From positions 1-64,000 of IMG/VR virus record IMGVR_UViG_3300003523_000207: a stretch of DNA of 64,000 bases; one strand, given 5' to 3'. Below are positions 12,245 through 44,245 of the stretch, one piece after another. The first letter of the stretch is position 1; every line of letters starts with the position of its first letter. The notes under the pieces were generated by a model, which saw only the letters and a list, made by a program, of their open reading frames with translations, ran no database searches and was not told the origin of the DNA. The translations under genes and the position numbers were made by a program. Source of the stretch: a virus. Lineage: Duplodnaviria; Caudoviricetes.

Positions 12245-12421
12245 ATGAGCAGACGCGAATCTATGGTGGAACGCGGCGAACGCGAATGTATTTCCAGCGG
12301 AATCGCCACATACGGCTACAAACGCTTCTGGATGGCTATAGACGAGCTTAACAGCAATAATCCGCCCAACCCAGTGACTTTGGAACTAATCCGACGGAAA
12401 TTTCCACAATTACAAAAATGA
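12245..12421 (+). CDS. Small hypothetical protein (58 aa)
   Basis: Below the ORF-track cut-off; MSRRESMVERGERECISSG...PQLQK*, fills the gap before a terminator. Confidence 0.5.
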   Translation: MSRRESMVERGERECISSGIATYGYKRFWMAIDELNSNNPPNPVTLELIRRKFPQLQK

Positions 12422-12448
12422 AAAAGGCGGCTTAAAGCCGCCTTTCTT
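12421..12448. terminator. Bidirectional intrinsic terminator
   Basis: AAAAAGGCGGCT-taa-AGCCGCCTTTCTT between convergent genes; near-identical copy at 28176-28206. Confidence 0.75.
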
Positions 12449-12449
12449 G

Positions 12450-12950
12450 TTATAACCCGACTCGATCCGCCTTACTCAGTAGTCTCTGGTTACGGCTACC
12501 CCTAAATTGCAAATCTAGGTCTCTCTGGGCTTGAATAAACGGACCATCCACTAACACGTCCACGGCGTCAAGAATTTGGCTTGTAACCCCCTCTACGTGT
12601 TTTCGCTGCCCCGGTTTCAAGTCTTGTTCATAAATATAACCGGTATACATCCATAATGTCTTATCCGGGCATTCGTTTTTGAAACGACTGATTAAGCCAA
12701 CCAACCCAACCTGGTTCTCCGGCTCGAACGGGTCACCGCCTAGAATCGACAACCCGGAAATATAGGACTTCTTACACGCTTCGATAATCTCGTTTACCTC
12801 AATTTCAGTAAACGGCTTTCCATAATTGAAGTTCCAAGTTTCCTCGTTAAAACAGCCTTGACAATGGTTTCTACAACCGCTTACATACAGCGATACGCGG
12901 TTTCCGGGGCCGTCTACTATGGACATATAGTAAATGTTGCCATAATTCAT
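12450..12950 (-). CDS. nrdG: Anaerobic ribonucleotide reductase activating protein (radical SAM)
   Basis: DGPGNRVSLYVSGCRNHCQGCFN (CxxxCxxC), GGDP, DVLVDGPF, FRGSRNQR. Confidence 0.95.
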   Translation of the reverse strand: MNYGNIYYMSIVDGPGNRVSLYVSGCRNHCQGCFNEETWNFNYGKPFTEIEVNEIIEACKKSYISGLSILGGDPFEPENQVGLVGLISRFKNECPDKTLWMYTGYIYEQDLKPGQRKHVEGVTSQILDAVDVLVDGPFIQAQRDLDLQFRGSRNQRLLSKADRVGL

Positions 12951-12981
12951 ACTATTTCCTCTTATTCTTGCAAAAACTTAG

Positions 12982-13125
12982 AAAAAAGATACCCTCGGTA
13001 TAGCAATATTGTGGAACTCTGCGTATACCAAGGGCATCCGAAACTTATATTTGAATACGAGTTCCGCCAAGTATTATAAAGGCAGTTATATATTGACCCT
13101 TAAACGTACTTGGCGGTGTTCGCCG
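12982..13125 (-). ncRNA. Structured leader/attenuator RNA between nrdD and nrdG
   Basis: Hairpin with loop GCGGAACTC, then a terminator-like hairpin (12988-13038) with loop GAGTTCCAC and a U6 tail; competing stem CCGCCAAGTA/TACTTGGCGG. Confidence 0.55.
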
Positions 13126-24143: not shown

Positions 24144-25046
24144 CTAACCAAGCTTGATAGAGGTTCCTTCGAGAGGAGTCAAGAAGCCGAGAACGATATG
24201 GAACTGGCCATTTTCAAAGCTAGGCTTGATATTGTTGCTGTCAACTGGTCGAGGAATCGGATAGACGACCGTGTGGGTTCCAAGTAAGTAGTCCGGAATG
24301 TTCACTTGGGAAGTGATTTTCGGCTTCGTCTTGGCTGCTCCCTTCGCACCCTTGACCTTCTTTGCGGCCTTCAGTTTAGCGGTAAGCTTGTCTACGAAAG
24401 TGGTTCGTGTGAACGTAATGGAGACCTCGTTCTGCGGAGTCAGCGTCGCGCTCACGTTTTCTTTCGAAATTCCCGGCAAGTCGACGATGACGTGACATTC
24501 GTCATTCGTCATAATCAGCTCGGAGAACGGTTCTTGCAAGTAGTAGGCGGACTGCGGTTGCTGTTGCTGAGGCTGCTGGGTAATGGGAACGCCTTGCTGC
24601 TGTTGCGGCTGCATCTGCGGTACTTGTTGCTGGACAGTCTGTTGTGGATAGTAGTTTGGTGGTACTTGCTGCGGCTGTTGCGGTTGCTGGTATACTGACG
24701 GTTGGACGTAGTTACCGGCGAACTGCTGATTCTGCATAGGCTGCGGAGCCGGTTGCTGAGCCATCGTATTCAGACCGATGCCCATACCCCTACCACCAAC
24801 GCGATGACGCTGGTTAATCATATCTGTTTCTCTCATAGTTTGCTGTATGGCGGACATACTGACACGTTCGCCTTCACCGGTGTTCCCCAAAGTGACGTTG
24901 TAGTCTGGGACACCATTATTGAAAATGATGGTAGAACCAAAATCTTCTTCAGCCATAGATGACCTTCTTTTTAAATGTTCAACTTCGACTATATCGTCGT
25001 CCTTGGCACCGAATAATTTAGCTGCAATGTTCTTAAAGAATCCCAT
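24144..25046 (-). CDS. Hsp20/alpha-crystallin domain protein with a Q/P-rich linker
   Basis: VIVDLPGISKENV and PRPVDSNNIKPSFENGQFHI match the alpha-crystallin domain. Confidence 0.75.
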   Translation of the reverse strand: MGFFKNIAAKLFGAKDDDIVEVEHLKRRSSMAEEDFGSTIIFNNGVPDYNVTLGNTGEGERVSMSAIQQTMRETDMINQRHRVGGRGMGIGLNTMAQQPAPQPMQNQQFAGNYVQPSVYQQPQQPQQVPPNYYPQQTVQQQVPQMQPQQQQGVPITQQPQQQQPQSAYYLQEPFSELIMTNDECHVIVDLPGISKENVSATLTPQNEVSITFTRTTFVDKLTAKLKAAKKVKGAKGAAKTKPKITSQVNIPDYLLGTHTVVYPIPRPVDSNNIKPSFENGQFHIVLGFLTPLEGTSIKLG

Positions 25047-25858
25047 TAACTACCCAGCGCATCTCGAAGCTCGGACACGACTGGTACACTTCTTAGCTTT
25101 GCCAACGCACGATTCCTAATGCGGCGTATGATTTCCTTGCTGACACGGCGTTCAGCGGAAATTTCACTAACGGTATCTTCGTATCCATCCAAGCCATACA
25201 GTCTACGCAGTAAATTAGTTTCTTCTGGCGTCAAGTTGTCTTCTAGGATCGATTTTAGCTTGTCTCGTCGCATTTCGTCTTCCAGATTGGCGTCGGTACG
25301 CTCATCGGAAGCCAGCGTATCTGCCAAGACGATTGGGGTTCGGTTCTTTGCAGTATCGCCTACAATGCTTCGTTCGACCGAGGCAGGTTCTGATACGGCG
25401 TTATCGGCAAGCTGGCCATATTGGATATGTTCAACCGATTCGCCTTTTTTCCTAGCCTTCAGAACGCGTTTACGCATTCTAACCGGTACTCGAACCATAT
25501 CGCTGTTGTGGACAATCAGGTCCATATGGCGTCGAACCTCGAAAACTGCGAACGAGCCGAACTTCGTGCCGCAAGTGTAGTCGTACTTGTTGAATGCTTC
25601 GAGCATACCGAGCTTCCCCTCGGCAAAGAAATCGTTGATCGGCAGACCAGTAGACTTCTTGTACGCTCTGGCTACAGCCAGTACGAATCTCAAGTTAGAC
25701 TGTATTATGGCGAGCTTTATTTCGGTACGCCTTTTTTCGTCCTTTGTTGAATGGAATTCACGAAATAGCTCAGTTTCTGCCTTTCGGCCGAGGATTTTGT
25801 ACTTTACAGTTTCTTCAATCAGTATCTTCGTAGACCAGTCTTCCTCATAGGTCTTCAT
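25046..25858 (-). CDS. RNA polymerase sigma70-family factor
   Basis: Region 2 IIQSNLRFVLAVARAY...EGKLGMLEAFNKYD...KFGSFAV; region 4 HTH T..EIS..VSKE.IR.I...AL.KL; probable start MKTYEE. Confidence 0.9.
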   Translation of the reverse strand: MKTYEEDWSTKILIEETVKYKILGRKAETELFREFHSTKDEKRRTEIKLAIIQSNLRFVLAVARAYKKSTGLPINDFFAEGKLGMLEAFNKYDYTCGTKFGSFAVFEVRRHMDLIVHNSDMVRVPVRMRKRVLKARKKGESVEHIQYGQLADNAVSEPASVERSIVGDTAKNRTPIVLADTLASDERTDANLEDEMRRDKLKSILEDNLTPEETNLLRRLYGLDGYEDTVSEISAERRVSKEIIRRIRNRALAKLRSVPVVSELRDALGS

Positions 25859-25933
25859 CCGCACTCGCTTTGTGGAATTGGGAATAAATATAATACATCC
25901 GAGTTTGTAATGCAAATTTTACATGGACAAGGA

Positions 25934-25949
25934 ATAAACTGCAGTTTAT
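25934..25949. promoter_or_regulatory. Perfect 16-bp palindrome ATAAACTGCAGTTTAT made of two overlapping late-motif copies
   Basis: Lies between the divergent sigma gene and the 25950/infA operon. Confidence 0.55.
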
Positions 25950-26303
25950 ATGACGATGAAACGAGATATATACGATTCTGTGGCACTGACCAGTGACCAA
26001 GCGGCCTTCAAGAAGCTGGTGGACGATGCTTCGGTTAAGCTAACCAAGTATTCCCGCTCCGTCAGCGTGGTCGGCTGCAAGTCCGGCCCCGGTTATGAAT
26101 ATTCCGACTATGTCGTAACGATTCGAGTAACCCACGACCGACAGTCTTGCTGCGTATTCCGAAACCGAACCGGTGTAATGGTGTATGCAATGATTGGTGG
26201 TAAGGTAGCCAGTGTCCATCACGAGTTCATATTTGTAGAAGACCATCTACAATCGTTATTGGCAGCCAACAATCAATCACCAGAAAAGGAAGGAAATGGC
26301 TAA
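25950..26303 (+). CDS. Hypothetical protein
   Basis: 117 aa ORF overlapping the infA start. Confidence 0.55.
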   Translation: MTMKRDIYDSVALTSDQAAFKKLVDDASVKLTKYSRSVSVVGCKSGPGYEYSDYVVTIRVTHDRQSCCVFRNRTGVMVYAMIGGKVASVHHEFIFVEDHLQSLLAANNQSPEKEGNG

Positions 26304-26569: not shown

Positions 26570-27262
26570 TTAGGCTTTTTTCTTTTTCACCGTCTTGGAC
26601 TTGCCAAGCGGCGCAGTTACGATGATTTTTACGTCATCGGACTTTTTCTTGCGGCCACGCGGCTTCTTTTCGGCTGGCTTGGAAAGCGTATCGATGAAGT
26701 TGGCGACATCCTTGGTCTTGGTGGCCTTGGTAGTCTTCTTCGTGGTCTTCTTGGTCGTGGCCTTGGTAGACTTCGTAGCGGCCTTCTTAGGTTTGGCCAT
26801 ATCAGCAAGTGTTTTAGCTGTTTTGGCGACTTCCTTGGCTTCATTAAGCATATCGACCAACGATTCGGTCTTTTCGCTTAGACTAGCAACTGAAGACTTT
26901 GCCTCGTCAATAGCATCGTCAAGCTTGTTGCAAGCATCTTCGAGAGTTTCCGTATTCGTGGTTTCATTAACCGGTTCAGCGGTCGGAGTTTCGGGAACTT
27001 CGACAGTTGCCGGTTCTGCGGCCGGAACCACGAGTTCGGCAGATTCGCTAACAACAGTAACGATCGGAGCCGATACGATTCCGGGTTCAGCGGTCTGAGC
27101 CGTGGCTTCGTCAACAGTTAGGGTATGCTCGGAGGCAGCTTCCGGAGCGATTGCAAAGTCGTCCACGATGTCAACCTTCTTGGAGGCGCGAACCTTCAAG
27201 ACGACAACAACGAGGACCAATGCGGCGAATACAGCCAATGCGGCTATGATTTCGGTGGTCAT
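26570..27262 (-). CDS. Membrane-anchored protein with a K/T/A-rich histone-H1-like tail
   Basis: N-terminal hydrophobic helix, acidic linker, KKTTKKTTKAT repeats and KKPRGRKK. Confidence 0.7.
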   Translation of the reverse strand: MTTEIIAALAVFAALVLVVVVLKVRASKKVDIVDDFAIAPEAASEHTLTVDEATAQTAEPGIVSAPIVTVVSESAELVVPAAEPATVEVPETPTAEPVNETTNTETLEDACNKLDDAIDEAKSSVASLSEKTESLVDMLNEAKEVAKTAKTLADMAKPKKAATKSTKATTKKTTKKTTKATKTKDVANFIDTLSKPAEKKPRGRKKKSDDVKIIVTAPLGKSKTVKKKKA

Positions 27263-40380: not shown

Positions 40381-40437
40381 ACATTACCCGATAACTCATT
40401 CCTGTAAATTTCTATGAATAATCGCAAAAGCTGCATA

Positions 40438-41802
40438 TTATATCAATGAGTTTATAGTGCTGAGTTCCTGCTTCAACAACCGGCACGGTTCTTCCGCAAG
40501 GAAGAACTGCAACCTCCGGTCTCTGGGGCTGACAAAAGTCATACCTTCCTTCCGGTAGACGGAAGGGCAGGCTTCGGCGGAACATCCGCCTACGGCTAAT
40601 CGCGCCGCATCATTGTCGGAAGTCTGGACGAGTCCAGACAGCCAAAGACCATAGAAATGGAGATTCTTGGCCGCATTAACATCACGGTCATGGTGCTCGC
40701 CACATACTGGGCAAGTCCATTCTCGGTCTTTTAAAGTCAAGTTTGTGTTCTTGTAGCATCCGCAATGCGAGCAGAACTGGCTGGACGCATAGAACTGCGG
40801 CGCAAGTATCAGCTTGATACCAAGCCACTTGCACTTGTATTTCATGTACTCCTTAATGCGTCCGAAATTGGCATCAAGGACGGACATAGAAAGATTGTGA
40901 TTCTTCGCCATATTCACCGGACGAAGCATCTCCATTACGACCATCTTTGGCTTGGACTTGTAGGTCAAGTCCGCCGTAAGCTGGTGTGCGTGGTTGATTC
41001 TGATAGAGGTTACCTTATGCCAAGCCTTGGCAAGAAGGATTCTAGCCTTCTTACGGTTCTTTGATTTTTTCTTCCGGCGAGACACCGTCTTCTGGATGCG
41101 CTTGATGCGCTTCATATACCGCTTGTATGCCTTCGGATTTGCATAAACTACGCCATCTGAAGTGATTGCAGAATCCTTGATACCAAGGTCTACTCCGATG
41201 ATGTCGTCTTCTGTAACTGAGGTAACCTCGTCATATAACGGTACAACATCTGTATGATAGGCAAACGATACGAACCAATGTCCAACCGCATCGACGGATA
41301 CGGTAGCCATTGCAATCGGAACCTTATCGGAACCGTCTGGTATCTTGATGTAGTCCTTCTCGGCTAATCTTATTCTGCCGAGTGTAGGCAACTGGACGAA
41401 GTCCCTGCCAATGAATACTCCACCTGAGCAGCGGAACGACTCGTCTACGCCGTAATGATGGAACTTCGGGTGTCTTGCCAGTCCCTTGAAGAACCGCTTC
41501 CAAGCAGAACCGAGGTCGATCAGAGCTTCTTGGCCACAAAACTTGGATACCGAGGTAATCCATTCATTACCCGGTTCCTTCTTGTAGATACACCATTCCT
41601 TGTGCCAGTCCCTCGGCGTTCCAAATCGGCACTTGGGCTTCTCGCCTTCTGGGGCAGCTTTCTTGGCTGCCTTGTATTCGGCATTCTGTATAGCAAGTTT
41701 CCAGTTGTAGGCACGACGAGAGACGGCGCACATACGGTGCATCGTCCGTATTTGAGCCTTAGTCGGCAATAAGCCTATCTTTCGTCCGCACTGCTGTTCC
41801 AT
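40438..41802 (-). CDS. tnpB: RNA-guided endonuclease TnpB (IS607-type)
   Basis: N-terminal L.PT..Q....R.AYNW, RuvC GVDLGIK / VVMEML / DRDVNAAKNL intact, CSHC...CPVC Zn finger. Confidence 0.95.
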   Translation of the reverse strand: MEQQCGRKIGLLPTKAQIRTMHRMCAVSRRAYNWKLAIQNAEYKAAKKAAPEGEKPKCRFGTPRDWHKEWCIYKKEPGNEWITSVSKFCGQEALIDLGSAWKRFFKGLARHPKFHHYGVDESFRCSGGVFIGRDFVQLPTLGRIRLAEKDYIKIPDGSDKVPIAMATVSVDAVGHWFVSFAYHTDVVPLYDEVTSVTEDDIIGVDLGIKDSAITSDGVVYANPKAYKRYMKRIKRIQKTVSRRKKKSKNRKKARILLAKAWHKVTSIRINHAHQLTADLTYKSKPKMVVMEMLRPVNMAKNHNLSMSVLDANFGRIKEYMKYKCKWLGIKLILAPQFYASSQFCSHCGCYKNTNLTLKDREWTCPVCGEHHDRDVNAAKNLHFYGLWLSGLVQTSDNDAARLAVGGCSAEACPSVYRKEGMTFVSPRDRRLQFFLAEEPCRLLKQELSTINSLI

Positions 41803-41807
41803 ACAAA

Positions 41808-41908
41808 CCAAAATGCCCAGCGAACGCTTATTGTGGAAGTCTGCATTCGCCGGGCATAGAAAATCCGCTTCTCTTTATATACGAGGACTTCCACATGCTC
41901 GCATATAC
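41808..41908 (-). ncRNA. Structured leader RNA (kissing-loop hairpins, terminator-like) upstream of tnpB
   Basis: Hairpin 1 TATATGCGAG/CTCGTATATA with loop TGTGGAAGTC; hairpin 2 (41813-41857) with loop GACTTCCACA followed by TTTT. Confidence 0.6.
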
Positions 41909-42001
41909 CAAAAGTTTATATATGTGGCACAAATTTTATTGCGATTATACGCAAAATCCGTAGAAATCCATAGAAAATCATAGAAATTTAGTCGTCAGAT
42001 G

Positions 42002-43915
42002 TTACCCCAACAACGACCCGTTAATCGCTTCGCCAGTAGCCTTAGCCTGTTCAGCGTTAGCAGTTTTAACTTCTTCACTTGTCATAGCCTCGATAAAGGC
42101 TTCCTTCATCGCCTCGACAGTTTCCTTGTTCTTTTCATTCTCGTTTGCACGCTTACCGTTAGCGTTATCGCCAGTAGTCGCGGTAGGCGTATTCGAGTTA
42201 GCGGTAGAACCGGAGGCAAGTTTCTTGTCTCCCTGATATAGAGCGGCAGCTGTTCCAAAACCACCAGCGTTTCCGTTGATGTTCACAAGGCCAACTTGAT
42301 CCTTGGTCAAACCGTACATATTTGCGCGACGGATTGCCTTGGTTGTTTCAGTTTCGTTACCAGCCAAGTGAGCGATTTCGGCAGAGAACGCTTGACCGAT
42401 AGAAACTTCGTTCGCGTCGTGAGCGTTCATAAATCCGGAACCGGCACCCTTCAGCGCACCCTTGAGGCCGTTCTTCATCGCACCATTAACGGCACCCTTG
42501 ACAGTTCCGATAATTTCAGGCACGGCGAGCGTATTCATCAAGGCATCGGTAGCACCAGCAAGAGCCGTCGAGGTGATGTCCGAAATGCTACCACCCTTCT
42601 TCCAAACGTCATAAGAGTTCTTTGCGCCGTCAACAAGGCTAATCGCGCCAGAAATAACGGGCAGCTTACGTCCAATCTTCGCTGCGGCAGAGCCAGCGGA
42701 CTTGGCCGCCGAAAGGGCGGCGTTAGTGAACTTTCCGACCGGAGACTTGGTATAAGCAGTTGCCGCCGCCTTTCCAACCTTCGAGAGTTTCGCACCGATC
42801 TTCGACATCAGCTTACCTTCTTGGGCAGCGTTCTTGACCGACCCGATTAGACTCTTGGCTTTGTTGAAAAGACCGCCAATCTTATCCTTAACCGCGCTGG
42901 CGGCCTTTCCAACGGCACTGTTCTTGACGGCGTCCTTCCAACCGGATAGCGTCTTCATGAACGAGGACTTTAGGCCGCCGAGAGTTTCCCTCACCGCAGA
43001 AGTCATACTCTTGAACTTGCCGACAACGGTCTGCGTCATTCCGCTGATAGTGGATTTAAACTTTGTCCCAAGATTCGCAATGGCTTTACCAAGCTTCGTG
43101 TCCTTCATCCACTTGGTCGCACCCTTCCAGACATTTGCAAACGCCTTACCGACCTTGCTCCACTGAGCTTTGAGACCTTGCATCCATCCGATAGCAAGAC
43201 CACCCAGAGCACCGATAGCACCACCAATAAGAGTTCCAAGAAAGCTCGACAGCCCAAACCCGGACTCGTCCGAAACAGTCAATATCTGGTTTTCTTGGTT
43301 CAGATACTTGTCCAGAGCTTGGGAAAGCTTGGTCATAGTCGGCTTCACAGTGTATTCTTGATAAGCCTTGCTCTCTTCGTGATCAATCTTCGATTGAACG
43401 CGGTCGGTCTCGTCTCCAGCGAGACCAGCCTTGTACGAGATATTTTCATTGTTCTCGGCTGCAGACCCGGCCACTGGCGAAGCAGTCTGTGCGGCTCCGA
43501 TATTGGAGATTCCGCCTTGAACCGCTCCAGACGAGTCGGTGAACACTATACCGTGGTTGATAATGATGTTCTTGATAGAACCATTACCGGCGACCATATC
43601 ACCAGTAAAGTTGCTACCGAGGCTCATACTGTTCTGGCTGGATGCCATAGCTTGCTGGGCAAACCCAGACTGGCCGTAATTTTCCTGAGCCGTAGCGGCA
43701 TTTCCGATTCCGCTAGTCCGTTCGTTGAACTGTTTAAGCAGTTCTATGATCGATGCTTGGTTTTCAAGGACCGCGTCCATCGGGTCGGCTTTAGGCGCAC
43801 TGTTATTCTCCTCGTGGAAATCCACAAGATTTTGGTGAGCCTTTGCGGCCTCTTGTTCGGCCAAAGCCTCCAGCATACCAGCCTTTACCGCATTTTTGAT
43901 GTCTACAGTAGCCAT
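42002..43915 (-). CDS. Tape measure protein (gp29-like)
   Basis: A/G/K-rich helical repeats, hydrophobic GxxxG segment; between chaperone and tube-initiator genes; TATAAACT at 43942-43949. Confidence 0.7.
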   Translation of the reverse strand: MATVDIKNAVKAGMLEALAEQEAAKAHQNLVDFHEENNSAPKADPMDAVLENQASIIELLKQFNERTSGIGNAATAQENYGQSGFAQQAMASSQNSMSLGSNFTGDMVAGNGSIKNIIINHGIVFTDSSGAVQGGISNIGAAQTASPVAGSAAENNENISYKAGLAGDETDRVQSKIDHEESKAYQEYTVKPTMTKLSQALDKYLNQENQILTVSDESGFGLSSFLGTLIGGAIGALGGLAIGWMQGLKAQWSKVGKAFANVWKGATKWMKDTKLGKAIANLGTKFKSTISGMTQTVVGKFKSMTSAVRETLGGLKSSFMKTLSGWKDAVKNSAVGKAASAVKDKIGGLFNKAKSLIGSVKNAAQEGKLMSKIGAKLSKVGKAAATAYTKSPVGKFTNAALSAAKSAGSAAAKIGRKLPVISGAISLVDGAKNSYDVWKKGGSISDITSTALAGATDALMNTLAVPEIIGTVKGAVNGAMKNGLKGALKGAGSGFMNAHDANEVSIGQAFSAEIAHLAGNETETTKAIRRANMYGLTKDQVGLVNINGNAGGFGTAAALYQGDKKLASGSTANSNTPTATTGDNANGKRANENEKNKETVEAMKEAFIEAMTSEEVKTANAEQAKATGEAINGSLLG

Positions 43916-43990
43916 TTTTGCATTCCAAGTCGGTTACTTGCAGTTTATATGATTTTGGGCATCAAAAAAGGCAAAGCCTCGCGGCTTCGC

Positions 43991-44245
43991 CTATCTTGCG
44001 CCCAGCATACTTGCAATTTCTTGGCCGGATTCCTCTTCTTCTACCCCGTAGAGCTGGTTGAATTTCTCCACGCTGTATTTCTTGACCTCCAAGAACTCCG
44101 GTATGAAAAGCTGGTCGCAATCCAGTATCGAAGTGTGGAGCATATCAGAGATGAGGCACTTGTCACGAACCAACGCTATCTTGTCATAGACTGGAAATAT
44201 ACTGGTCGAGACGAAAGGGATAGAAGACCTTGACCTCCTTTCCAC
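43991..44245 (-). CDS. gp51-like small baseplate/tail assembly protein (start uncertain, possibly frameshift-accessed)
   Basis: Overlaps the end of the gp26-like gene in the +1 frame; weak GTG start. Confidence 0.5.
   Translation of the reverse strand: MERRSRSSIPFVSTSIFPVYDKIALVRDKCLISDMLHTSILDCDQLFIPEFLEVKKYSVEKFNQLYGVEEEESGQEIASMLGAR

Follow-up and report, generated by a model that had tools for sequence, protein, structure and literature searches.

A covarying two-hairpin element, probably a 5' leader, heads endonuclease, tnpB and other accessory genes in phages of gut Bacteroidales

In the c4 RNA of phage P1 and the CI RNA of P4, short complementary loop segments of a phage leader set specificity by compensatory change, and the proposed output is premature termination; in the IncI-alpha and IncB rep mRNAs, a leader pseudoknot activates translation and an antisense RNA made from the opposite strand blocks it. 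In Bacteroidales hosts, promoter and translation signals differ from those of Escherichia coli, and few cis-regulatory RNAs are known. The endonuclease genes of T-even phages (I-TevI-III, segB, mobE and seg43(25)) are presented, in the part of PMC2988022 available to us, as free-standing genes located beside nrd genes and provided with a late promoter of their own; their expression is restrained by stable hairpins or terminators that immediately precede the ribosome-binding site, and in seg43(25) a very stable hairpin lies just upstream of that site and does not sequester it. T4-type phages also carry the so-called PeSL cassettes, which the available parts of PMC2839356 and PMC4122927 describe as units of ~100 bp made of a promoter, a stem-loop and a start region, located ahead of accessory open reading frames (ORFs) at indel boundaries. 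The element analysed here, which departs from each of these four systems in a defining trait, was found twice on the minus strand of a 64,000-nucleotide stretch of viral DNA (the window; positions 1 to 64,000 of IMG/VR record IMGVR_UViG_3300003523_000207; Duplodnaviria, Caudoviricetes), once between the genes for the anaerobic ribonucleotide reductase (nrdD) and its activase (nrdG), and once ahead of a tnpB gene. The window is part of an 81.5-kb record scored as 19% complete, and the record is therefore a fragment of a very large phage.

Both copies are built alike (Table 1). The first hairpin has a 12-nt loop and is separated by 15-18 nt of purine-rich spacer from a second, long hairpin whose loop measures 15-16 nt; a U-rich tail and a start codon follow. 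The two loops of each copy are complementary. In the nrdD-nrdG copy (copy 1), positions 13067-13059 match 13019-13011 through seven contiguous pairs, one C/A mismatch and one G-C pair; in the tnpB copy (copy 2) nine pairs are possible, and a G/C swap relative to copy 1 is compensated in the partner loop. An earlier reading of the letters of this DNA (the original prediction) had listed the two hairpins, the U6 tail, the complementary loops and a second occurrence near 41808-41908 with its compensatory swap, and all of these features were present on the minus strand. Both copies folded better than shuffled sequences (z = -5.83 for copy 1 and -4.35 for copy 2, with none of 200 shuffles as good). 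The local folds within hairpin 2 reached -29.1 and -26.6 kcal/mol, and its stem is as G+C-rich as a terminator requires. In the whole 81.5-kb record there are just two occurrences of the 16-nt loop motif.

To find relatives, viral contigs, species genomes and metagenome contigs were scanned with a pattern in which the loop flanks were fixed and both central triplets left free. The full architecture was present in 7 of the 10 stretches matched in viral contigs, in 3 of the 29 matched in species genomes (all of them in Bacteroidales metagenome-assembled genomes, MAGs) and in 38 of the 71 matched in metagenome contigs; the other 3, 26 and 33 stretches, respectively, were chance matches. A 14-base loop pattern matched at least 118 stretches of viral contigs, and the architecture was present in only two of them (L029 and L008). 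Two covariance models were built, R1 from three copies (in MAFFT alignments, loop 1 and the 3' arm of hairpin 2 fell out of register from one subfamily to another) and R2 from 48 matches. With default filters, R2 missed L248 and L269; both were judged by eye and stand outside the pairing counts given below, which are based on alignment A6, with 48 distinct rows. Altogether, about 50 distinct relatives were found in phage, metagenome and Bacteroidales MAG contigs.

Standard pairs occupied 97.0% of the pair cells of A6, compared with 64.3% after shuffling, and none of 500 shuffles reached the observed value; the covariation score was 0.80 versus 0.185. When partners were slid by 1-3 columns, pairing fell to 36-47%. 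The loop-loop helix, which was included in neither R1 nor R2, was 99.8% paired, and its three central pairs were represented by 3, 4 and 3 pair types. The outer six loop-loop pairs are constant in A5 and A6 because the search pattern imposed it, so that their constancy does not denote conservation. Ten copies were found independently of the pattern, through the models or as neighbours of TnpB or NrdG relatives (L164B, L246, L247, L248, L249, L250, L252, L269, L291 and L292). All ten retain 9-10 complementary loop bases, and in nine the flanks are altered with compensation; in L248 and L269 the loop-loop helices are entirely different. In total, 20 different loop-loop sequences were recorded, all of them complementary (16 in A6, plus those of L248, L269, L291 and L292). 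Since G-U pairs are frequent, the strand that folds is the one in the sense of the ORF. Loop 1 measures 12 nt in 47/47 intact copies and the loop of hairpin 2 measures 14-16 nt in 48/48. The spacer is 14-24 nt long and purine-rich (38% A, 8% C). The tail contains 61% T, compared with 31% overall, with a run of three or more T in 40 of the 48 copies. The family is defined by its shape, with almost no fixed sequence, and the fold is conserved through covariation alone; the earlier claim that this is a conserved RNA structure was thus borne out by the 48 distinct homologues.

The element had also been suspected to be undescribed. In agreement with this, Rfam 15 gave no match at the gathering score across the 64-kb window, and around both copies E values of up to 10 returned only chance-level miRNA and snoRNA matches. 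No match to the nrdG region, to the tnpB unit or to the leader of a complete record (G002, see below) was obtained in GenBank phage records. The motif is not described in the papers searched, and may sit among the 8,495 unnamed IMG/VR candidate RNAs mentioned in the available part of PMC10690425. Among 151 Bacteroidales genomes sampled, with no more than 24 candidates scored in each, just two gave a match; the carriers of the element are therefore phages and mobile DNA. Sequencing runs containing 39-42% of the sampled words of the window region came from bovine and other gut metagenomes, in 10 studies.

Of the 48 copies, 44 have a promoter-like box no more than 40 nt upstream of hairpin 1, with the form TAnn(n)TTTG in 19, TATAAAC in 23 and both in two. 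TAnnTTTG is the Bacteroides -7 promoter consensus. The distance from the end of the box to the 6-bp hairpin-1 stem of the model is 8-13 nt in 42/48, and only 2-3 nt in L150 and L164B. This fixed distance argues for a 5' leader, which moves together with its promoter and gene as one cassette. The box of copy 2, ATATAAACT, occurs 33 times in the 355-kb relative G001, compared with 7 occurrences of the reversed control (a ~5-fold enrichment observed only in G001); it probably acts as a promoter of these phages. The window contains another ATATAAACT within 43940-43995 (minus strand), after an ordinary terminator and 27 nt before ORF 42002-43915, and a third at 25943-25951 (minus strand), ahead of ORF 25046-25915. 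The sequence ATATAWAAC, considered as a general promoter, was dropped, having one match in the window.

An ORF starts between -16 and +25 nt from the end of the model in 40 of 41 copies, the distance from hairpin 2 to the start codon of the headed gene being 9-28 nt, and the orientation of the element is always that of this ORF. The genes headed encode TnpB, nucleases with a zinc finger and a DUF559 domain, a DUF7487 protein, Bro-N/ANT antirepressor-like proteins and small ORFs of 41-157 aa; the DUF7487 protein (Pfam) matches PHROG homing-endonuclease families at 9e-12. In G002, a complete record of 105 kb, the single copy heads a leftward 7-kb operon of small ORFs and adjoins a divergent region of 700 bp, 2.7 kb from an integrase. 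At L125:9120-9200 (minus strand) lies the only copy with an ORF (Bro-N/ANT) that starts as far as 80 nt downstream, and a canonical terminator-like second hairpin stands in between. More distant zinc-finger/DUF559 endonuclease genes (30-39% identity) were found that have no leader.

The origin of copy 1 could be traced by comparing junctions between nrdD and nrdG, which in the window are spaced by 177 nt. In three relatives with 72-75% NrdG identity (L266, L267 and L268) the nrdD stop overlaps the nrdG start, as expected of an empty site, and a model search with filters off detected no element at these junctions. In three others, at 98% identity (L262, which belongs to G001, L263 and L265), the spacer consists of the box, the leader and an endonuclease gene that ends 1 nt before nrdG and encodes 349 aa when read from the ATG (the open frame spans 383 aa). 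It is the ORF at this site that matches Pfam DUF7487 and, at 9e-12, the PHROG homing-endonuclease families. The spacer of L269 (75%) contains a diverged leader and an endonuclease gene of 392 aa. In the window, the leader, with a degenerate box, is followed by the last ~35 nt of the endonuclease ORF and by nrdG. L264 (98%) lacks the endonuclease gene as well, and a further deletion of 57 nt has removed the box, the 10-mer upstream of it and most of hairpin 1. The element marks the left border of the indel, whose right border falls within the tail of the endonuclease ORF; the element is present on the upstream side only. These junctions show that copy 1 entered with a homing-endonuclease gene that has since been lost, and that its leader is decaying. 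The original prediction had offered such a relic as its alternative, and the relatives at 98% and 75% that carry the element together with an endonuclease gene speak for it; its first proposal, a common signal gating the reductase activase and a mobile nuclease, is not supported, given the relic nature of the nrd copy and the empty sites. The annotation of the window was corrected in this sense: the nrdD-nrdG spacer does not regulate nrd but is a scar left by the loss of a mobile gene, and nrdG transcripts now must pass through the relic leader. An NrdR box was considered by eye and rejected (the spacing does not fit and the element is not nrd-specific). A canonical bidirectional terminator lies directly behind nrdG, at 12421-12447.

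The RNA evidence on this spacer comes from four runs, all of them contigs of metatranscriptome libraries with a depth of 3-6, which cannot give starts, ends or levels. Contig X15 extends from nrdD to just beyond the U tail and skips 13061-13117 (57 nt). Its joint is the same as that in the DNA of L264, and X15 was for this reason read as a strain variant rather than as a product of RNA processing. In contigs X17 and X18 the joint is 13040/13102 (61 nt skipped); no DNA counterpart was found for it, and it may correspond to another deletion variant. Contigs skipping 57 or 61 nt within 13040-13118 were present in RNA libraries from three studies.

Copy 2 lies 5' of tnpB, ~100 nt inside the left end of a 1.62-kb block that recurs in unrelated contigs (L198, L156/L244 and L181), which identifies the block as a tnpB-only insertion sequence; no tnpA was found beside it. 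The unit has an 11-nt terminal inverted repeat with arms near 41990 and 40400, and its left end, upstream of the leader, contains a 10-nt motif repeated three times in direct orientation, as well as a small palindrome. A TnpB guide RNA (omega or re RNA) or an end hairpin of the IS200/IS605 type was considered for the leader and rejected, as the leader is neither 3' of tnpB nor at the transposon ends and also heads genes other than tnpB. In L251 (G158:29916-32647), a leaderless tnpB gene with 60% identity starts right where another ORF stops; possibly only units in which tnpB stands alone have the leader. A further leader that has outlived its gene, the second such case, lies at L215:12303-12600, ahead of a tnpB open frame shortened to 53 codons.

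Table 1. Positions in the window of the two copies of the element, their parts and the genes around them
Feature	Position	Strand	Remarks
Copy 1, whole element	13075-12982	-	nrdD-nrdG spacer
Copy 1, upstream 10-mer	13107-13116	-	can pair with 13073-13064; pairing used in the RNAfold minimum free energy structure
Copy 1, degenerate promoter-like box	13084-13093	-	one base off TATAAAC
Copy 1, hairpin 1 (5-bp stem, 12-nt loop)	13054-13075	-	loop bases 13067-13059 pair with loop 2
Copy 1, purine-rich spacer	13039-13053	-	
Copy 1, hairpin 2 (15-bp stem plus 2 inner G-C pairs, 16-nt loop)	12988-13038	-	
Copy 1, U6 tail after hairpin 2	12982-12987	-	
Endonuclease-ORF remnant (last ~35 nt of the G001 ORF)	12952-12984	-	also holds the nrdG ribosome-binding region
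nrdD, anaerobic ribonucleotide reductase, 858 aa	13128-15704	-	upstream neighbour of copy 1; Pfam NRDD 2e-150, ATP-cone, Gly_radical
nrdG, ribonucleotide reductase activase	12450-12950	-	immediately 3' of the relic leader; Pfam Fer4_12 1.2e-48
Copy 2, whole element	41907-41803	-	tnpB 5' spacer, 200 nt long
Copy 2, promoter-like box ATATAAACT	41913-41921	-	10 nt before the 6-bp hairpin-1 stem of the model; 6 nt before the extended stem of this copy (41907)
Copy 2, hairpin 1 (10-bp stem, 12-nt loop)	41876-41907	-	41894-41886 pair with loop 2
Copy 2, hairpin 2 (12+3-bp stem, 15-nt loop)	41813-41857	-	41841-41833 pair with loop 1
Copy 2, U/G-rich tail	41803-41812	-	from hairpin 2 to the tnpB start codon
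tnpB, 454 aa	40438-41802	-	Pfam Cas12f1-like_TNB 2e-21, OrfB_IS605, HTH_OrfB_IS605
tnpB-only insertion sequence, 1.62 kb	40388-42010	-	contains copy 2; blastn block 42009/42012..40388

When compared with the known systems, the leader shows likenesses to each and a distinct combination of traits. The hairpins of the T-even endonuclease genes are single and gene-specific, and no loop-loop pairing is reported for them in the available part of their description, whereas here one covarying two-hairpin fold serves several nuclease families, TnpB and non-nuclease genes. In the I-TevI type, as presented there, the late promoter lies inside the hairpin and late transcripts escape it; here the box precedes both hairpins (by 8-13 nt in 42/48). 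With the PeSL cassettes the leader shares a promoter-like box (44/48), a stem-loop and an ORF start at 25 nt or less (40/41), all in one intergenic unit. However, as far as the available accounts go, PeSL have a sigma-70-like promoter with the stem-loop at or between its boxes, while here two covarying hairpins lie downstream of the box; and PeSL flank cassettes on both sides and recombine, while at nrdD-nrdG the element is on the upstream side only. Like the C4 RNAs, it is a phage leader with complementary loop segments for which premature termination is the proposed output, but the partners are two loops of a single leader and there is no sign of processing. Extra target sites of the C4 type (at most one mismatch, from -300 to +400 nt) were sought around 41 copies: a site at the start codon was present only in L121, and four others lay far off, the control mean being ~0.1 per copy. 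The original proposal of an attenuator with c4/CI logic held in part, as the layout fits an attenuator, but the c4/CI side of it did not, given this single third site and the lack of an Rfam C4 match. In the IncI-alpha and IncB rep leaders, as here, a 5' hairpin pairs through its loop with a segment lying some way off, near the start region, and the loop start resembles a U-turn. The antisense promoter, however, is not a conserved feature in the present family: one opposite-strand box was seen by eye in the spacer, in copy 1 only, and the idea was discarded.

We regard it as probable that the element is a structured 5' leader of ~105 nt belonging to portable promoter-leader-gene cassettes in phages and mobile elements of ruminant and other gut Bacteroidales. 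A role as a cis-acting attenuator or insulator is our best guess, suggested by the succession of a promoter-like box, a 5' hairpin, a purine-rich spacer, a strong hairpin, a tail with 61% T and a nearby start codon, a layout that fits an attenuator. Transcription would most likely start a few bases before hairpin 1. Loop 1 (12 nt) and loop 2 (15-16 nt) form a kissing helix of 9-10 bp that would pre-organise or lock the terminator-like hairpin adjoining the translation start, and the locked hairpin would limit both read-through and ribosome access. A possibly harmful nuclease, or an early gene, could thus be held low or timed, and be uncoupled from its neighbours. A precedent is found in the T-even phages, where homing-endonuclease genes are held down by terminators and by hairpins beside the ribosome-binding site (PMC2988022, in the part available).

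Several observations weigh against this proposal. Termination and the start site are both predicted, no transcript ends having been seen. The loop of hairpin 2 (15-16 nt) is far above the 3-8 nt of canonical intrinsic terminators, only 23 of the 48 copies have four or more consecutive T after the stem, and a simple terminator scan flagged neither copy of the window, yet it flagged the ordinary terminator behind nrdG. In addition, the terminator cannot be tight, because nrdG (in the window and in G001) and the 7-kb operon of G002 depend on transcripts that run through hairpin 2. For low expression a weak promoter would be enough, which leaves the need for a kissing fold unexplained. Finally, sequestering of the start region is moderate and variable, with a mean unpaired probability of positions -14 to +3 ranging from 0.12 to 0.72; in the leaders of the zinc-finger endonuclease genes, the tail and part of the GAGG sequence are paired with the spacer.

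Some of these observations would be better accommodated if the leader were not a terminator but a stabiliser of the mRNA 5' end, a translation-initiation module, or both. In this explanation, the main rival and one that we consider possible though rather doubtful, the compact kissing fold would shield the 5' end from decay and the A/U-rich tail would be the unstructured ribosome landing site of Bacteroidales messages, which are poor in Shine-Dalgarno sequences. The promoter-like boxes place hairpin 1 within a few bases of the 5' end, only the shape is conserved, the large loop and the weak T runs of about half of the copies fit a terminator poorly, and the downstream genes require read-through. 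Nevertheless, a single 5' hairpin would suffice for protection, and the purine-rich spacer, strong stem and U-rich tail resemble a terminator with its A-tract.

The diversity of the loop-loop helices raises another explanation, in which the terminated leader is a trans-acting small RNA whose loop 1 kisses loop 2 of a nascent leader from the same cassette, providing a specificity code for feedback or hetero-immunity. There are 20 loop-loop classes, and in the six genomes or records with 2-3 copies (G000, G001, G005, G157, G158 and G159) all co-resident copies differ. Most loops 1 start with a pyrimidine-U-N-purine turn, a hallmark of loops that mediate fast antisense recognition, and some copies adjoin an integrase or precede Bro/Ant genes. 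With 20 classes, however, differing sequences within a genome are expected by chance, some co-resident pairs differ at only one of nine bases, and intramolecular pairing accounts for the covariation equally well; we find a trans-acting RNA quite unlikely. A related idea, that the loop-loop helix is a freely re-programmable address of each selfish cassette, whether that carries a homing endonuclease, TnpB, an antirepressor or an early operon, with terminated leaders kissing nascent leaders of the same address and thereby setting termination, is also speculative and in our opinion unlikely. Were it true, it would amount to an RNA-only, cassette-specific control of dosage or immunity in Bacteroidales phages, in which new specificities arise by paired loop mutations.

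A switch that gates nrdG and tnpB together, through antisense logic like that of P1 c4 and P4 CI or through a shared ligand or signal, was suggested by the presence of the same architecture at both loci and by the succession of promoter, hairpins, U-rich tail and gene, typical of regulated leaders. In copy 1, moreover, an upstream segment can compete for hairpin 1, as originally noted, and the predicted structure of lowest energy uses this pairing (Table 1). This 10-mer lies 5' of the promoter-like box, is restricted to copy 1 and its 98% relatives, is deleted in L264, and is therefore not a feature of the family. As described above, the nrd copy is a relic of an endonuclease cassette with empty sites in relatives, and a third complementary site near the start codon exists in 1 of 41 copies. 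No C4 or riboswitch family of Rfam matched at E values up to 10, the copies found without the pattern have almost no fixed unpaired base, which argues against a ligand pocket, and the genes served are not metabolic. A shared switch thus appears very improbable. A ribozyme or riboswitch was likewise rejected, given the absence of Rfam matches, the changes in loop flanks and tails among the pattern-independent copies, and the nature of the genes (nucleases, Bro/Ant, small ORFs).

That the element works as single-stranded DNA in cassette mobility and not as RNA, as a recombination or transposition site comparable to IS200/IS605 ends, integron attC or the PeSL cassettes that mediate gene shuffling in T4-type phages (PMC2839356 and PMC4122927, in the parts available), is extremely unlikely: it does border the endonuclease-gene indel precisely on the left, and elsewhere lies within an insertion sequence, and folded DNA tolerates G-T pairs, but its orientation always follows that of the ORF downstream, a promoter-like box precedes it at a constant spacing, its tail is U-rich, a single copy at the indel provides no pair of exchange sites, and within the insertion sequence it is ~100 nt away from the left end.

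The family adds an apparently unnamed, well-supported structured RNA to the phages of dominant gut and rumen bacteria. One portable expression module is thereby common to homing endonucleases, TnpB and antirepressor-like genes, which could explain how selfish and accessory genes stay tolerable to the host genome. The compact ~105-nt kissing-loop fold is also suited to structure probing and to the design of expression parts for Bacteroides.

Some minor observations concern genes of the window and its relatives. In related phages (L127, L221, L232, L197, L256, L257 and L259), zinc-finger/DUF559 endonuclease genes lie directly behind tRNA genes, which recalls segB of the T4 tRNA cluster. The window itself contains a tRNA-Pro(CGG) gene at 26955-27035 (plus strand). 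The Pfam NRDD model matches the 858-aa NrdD in two stretches, and the protein probably contains an insertion between the ATP-cone and the core.

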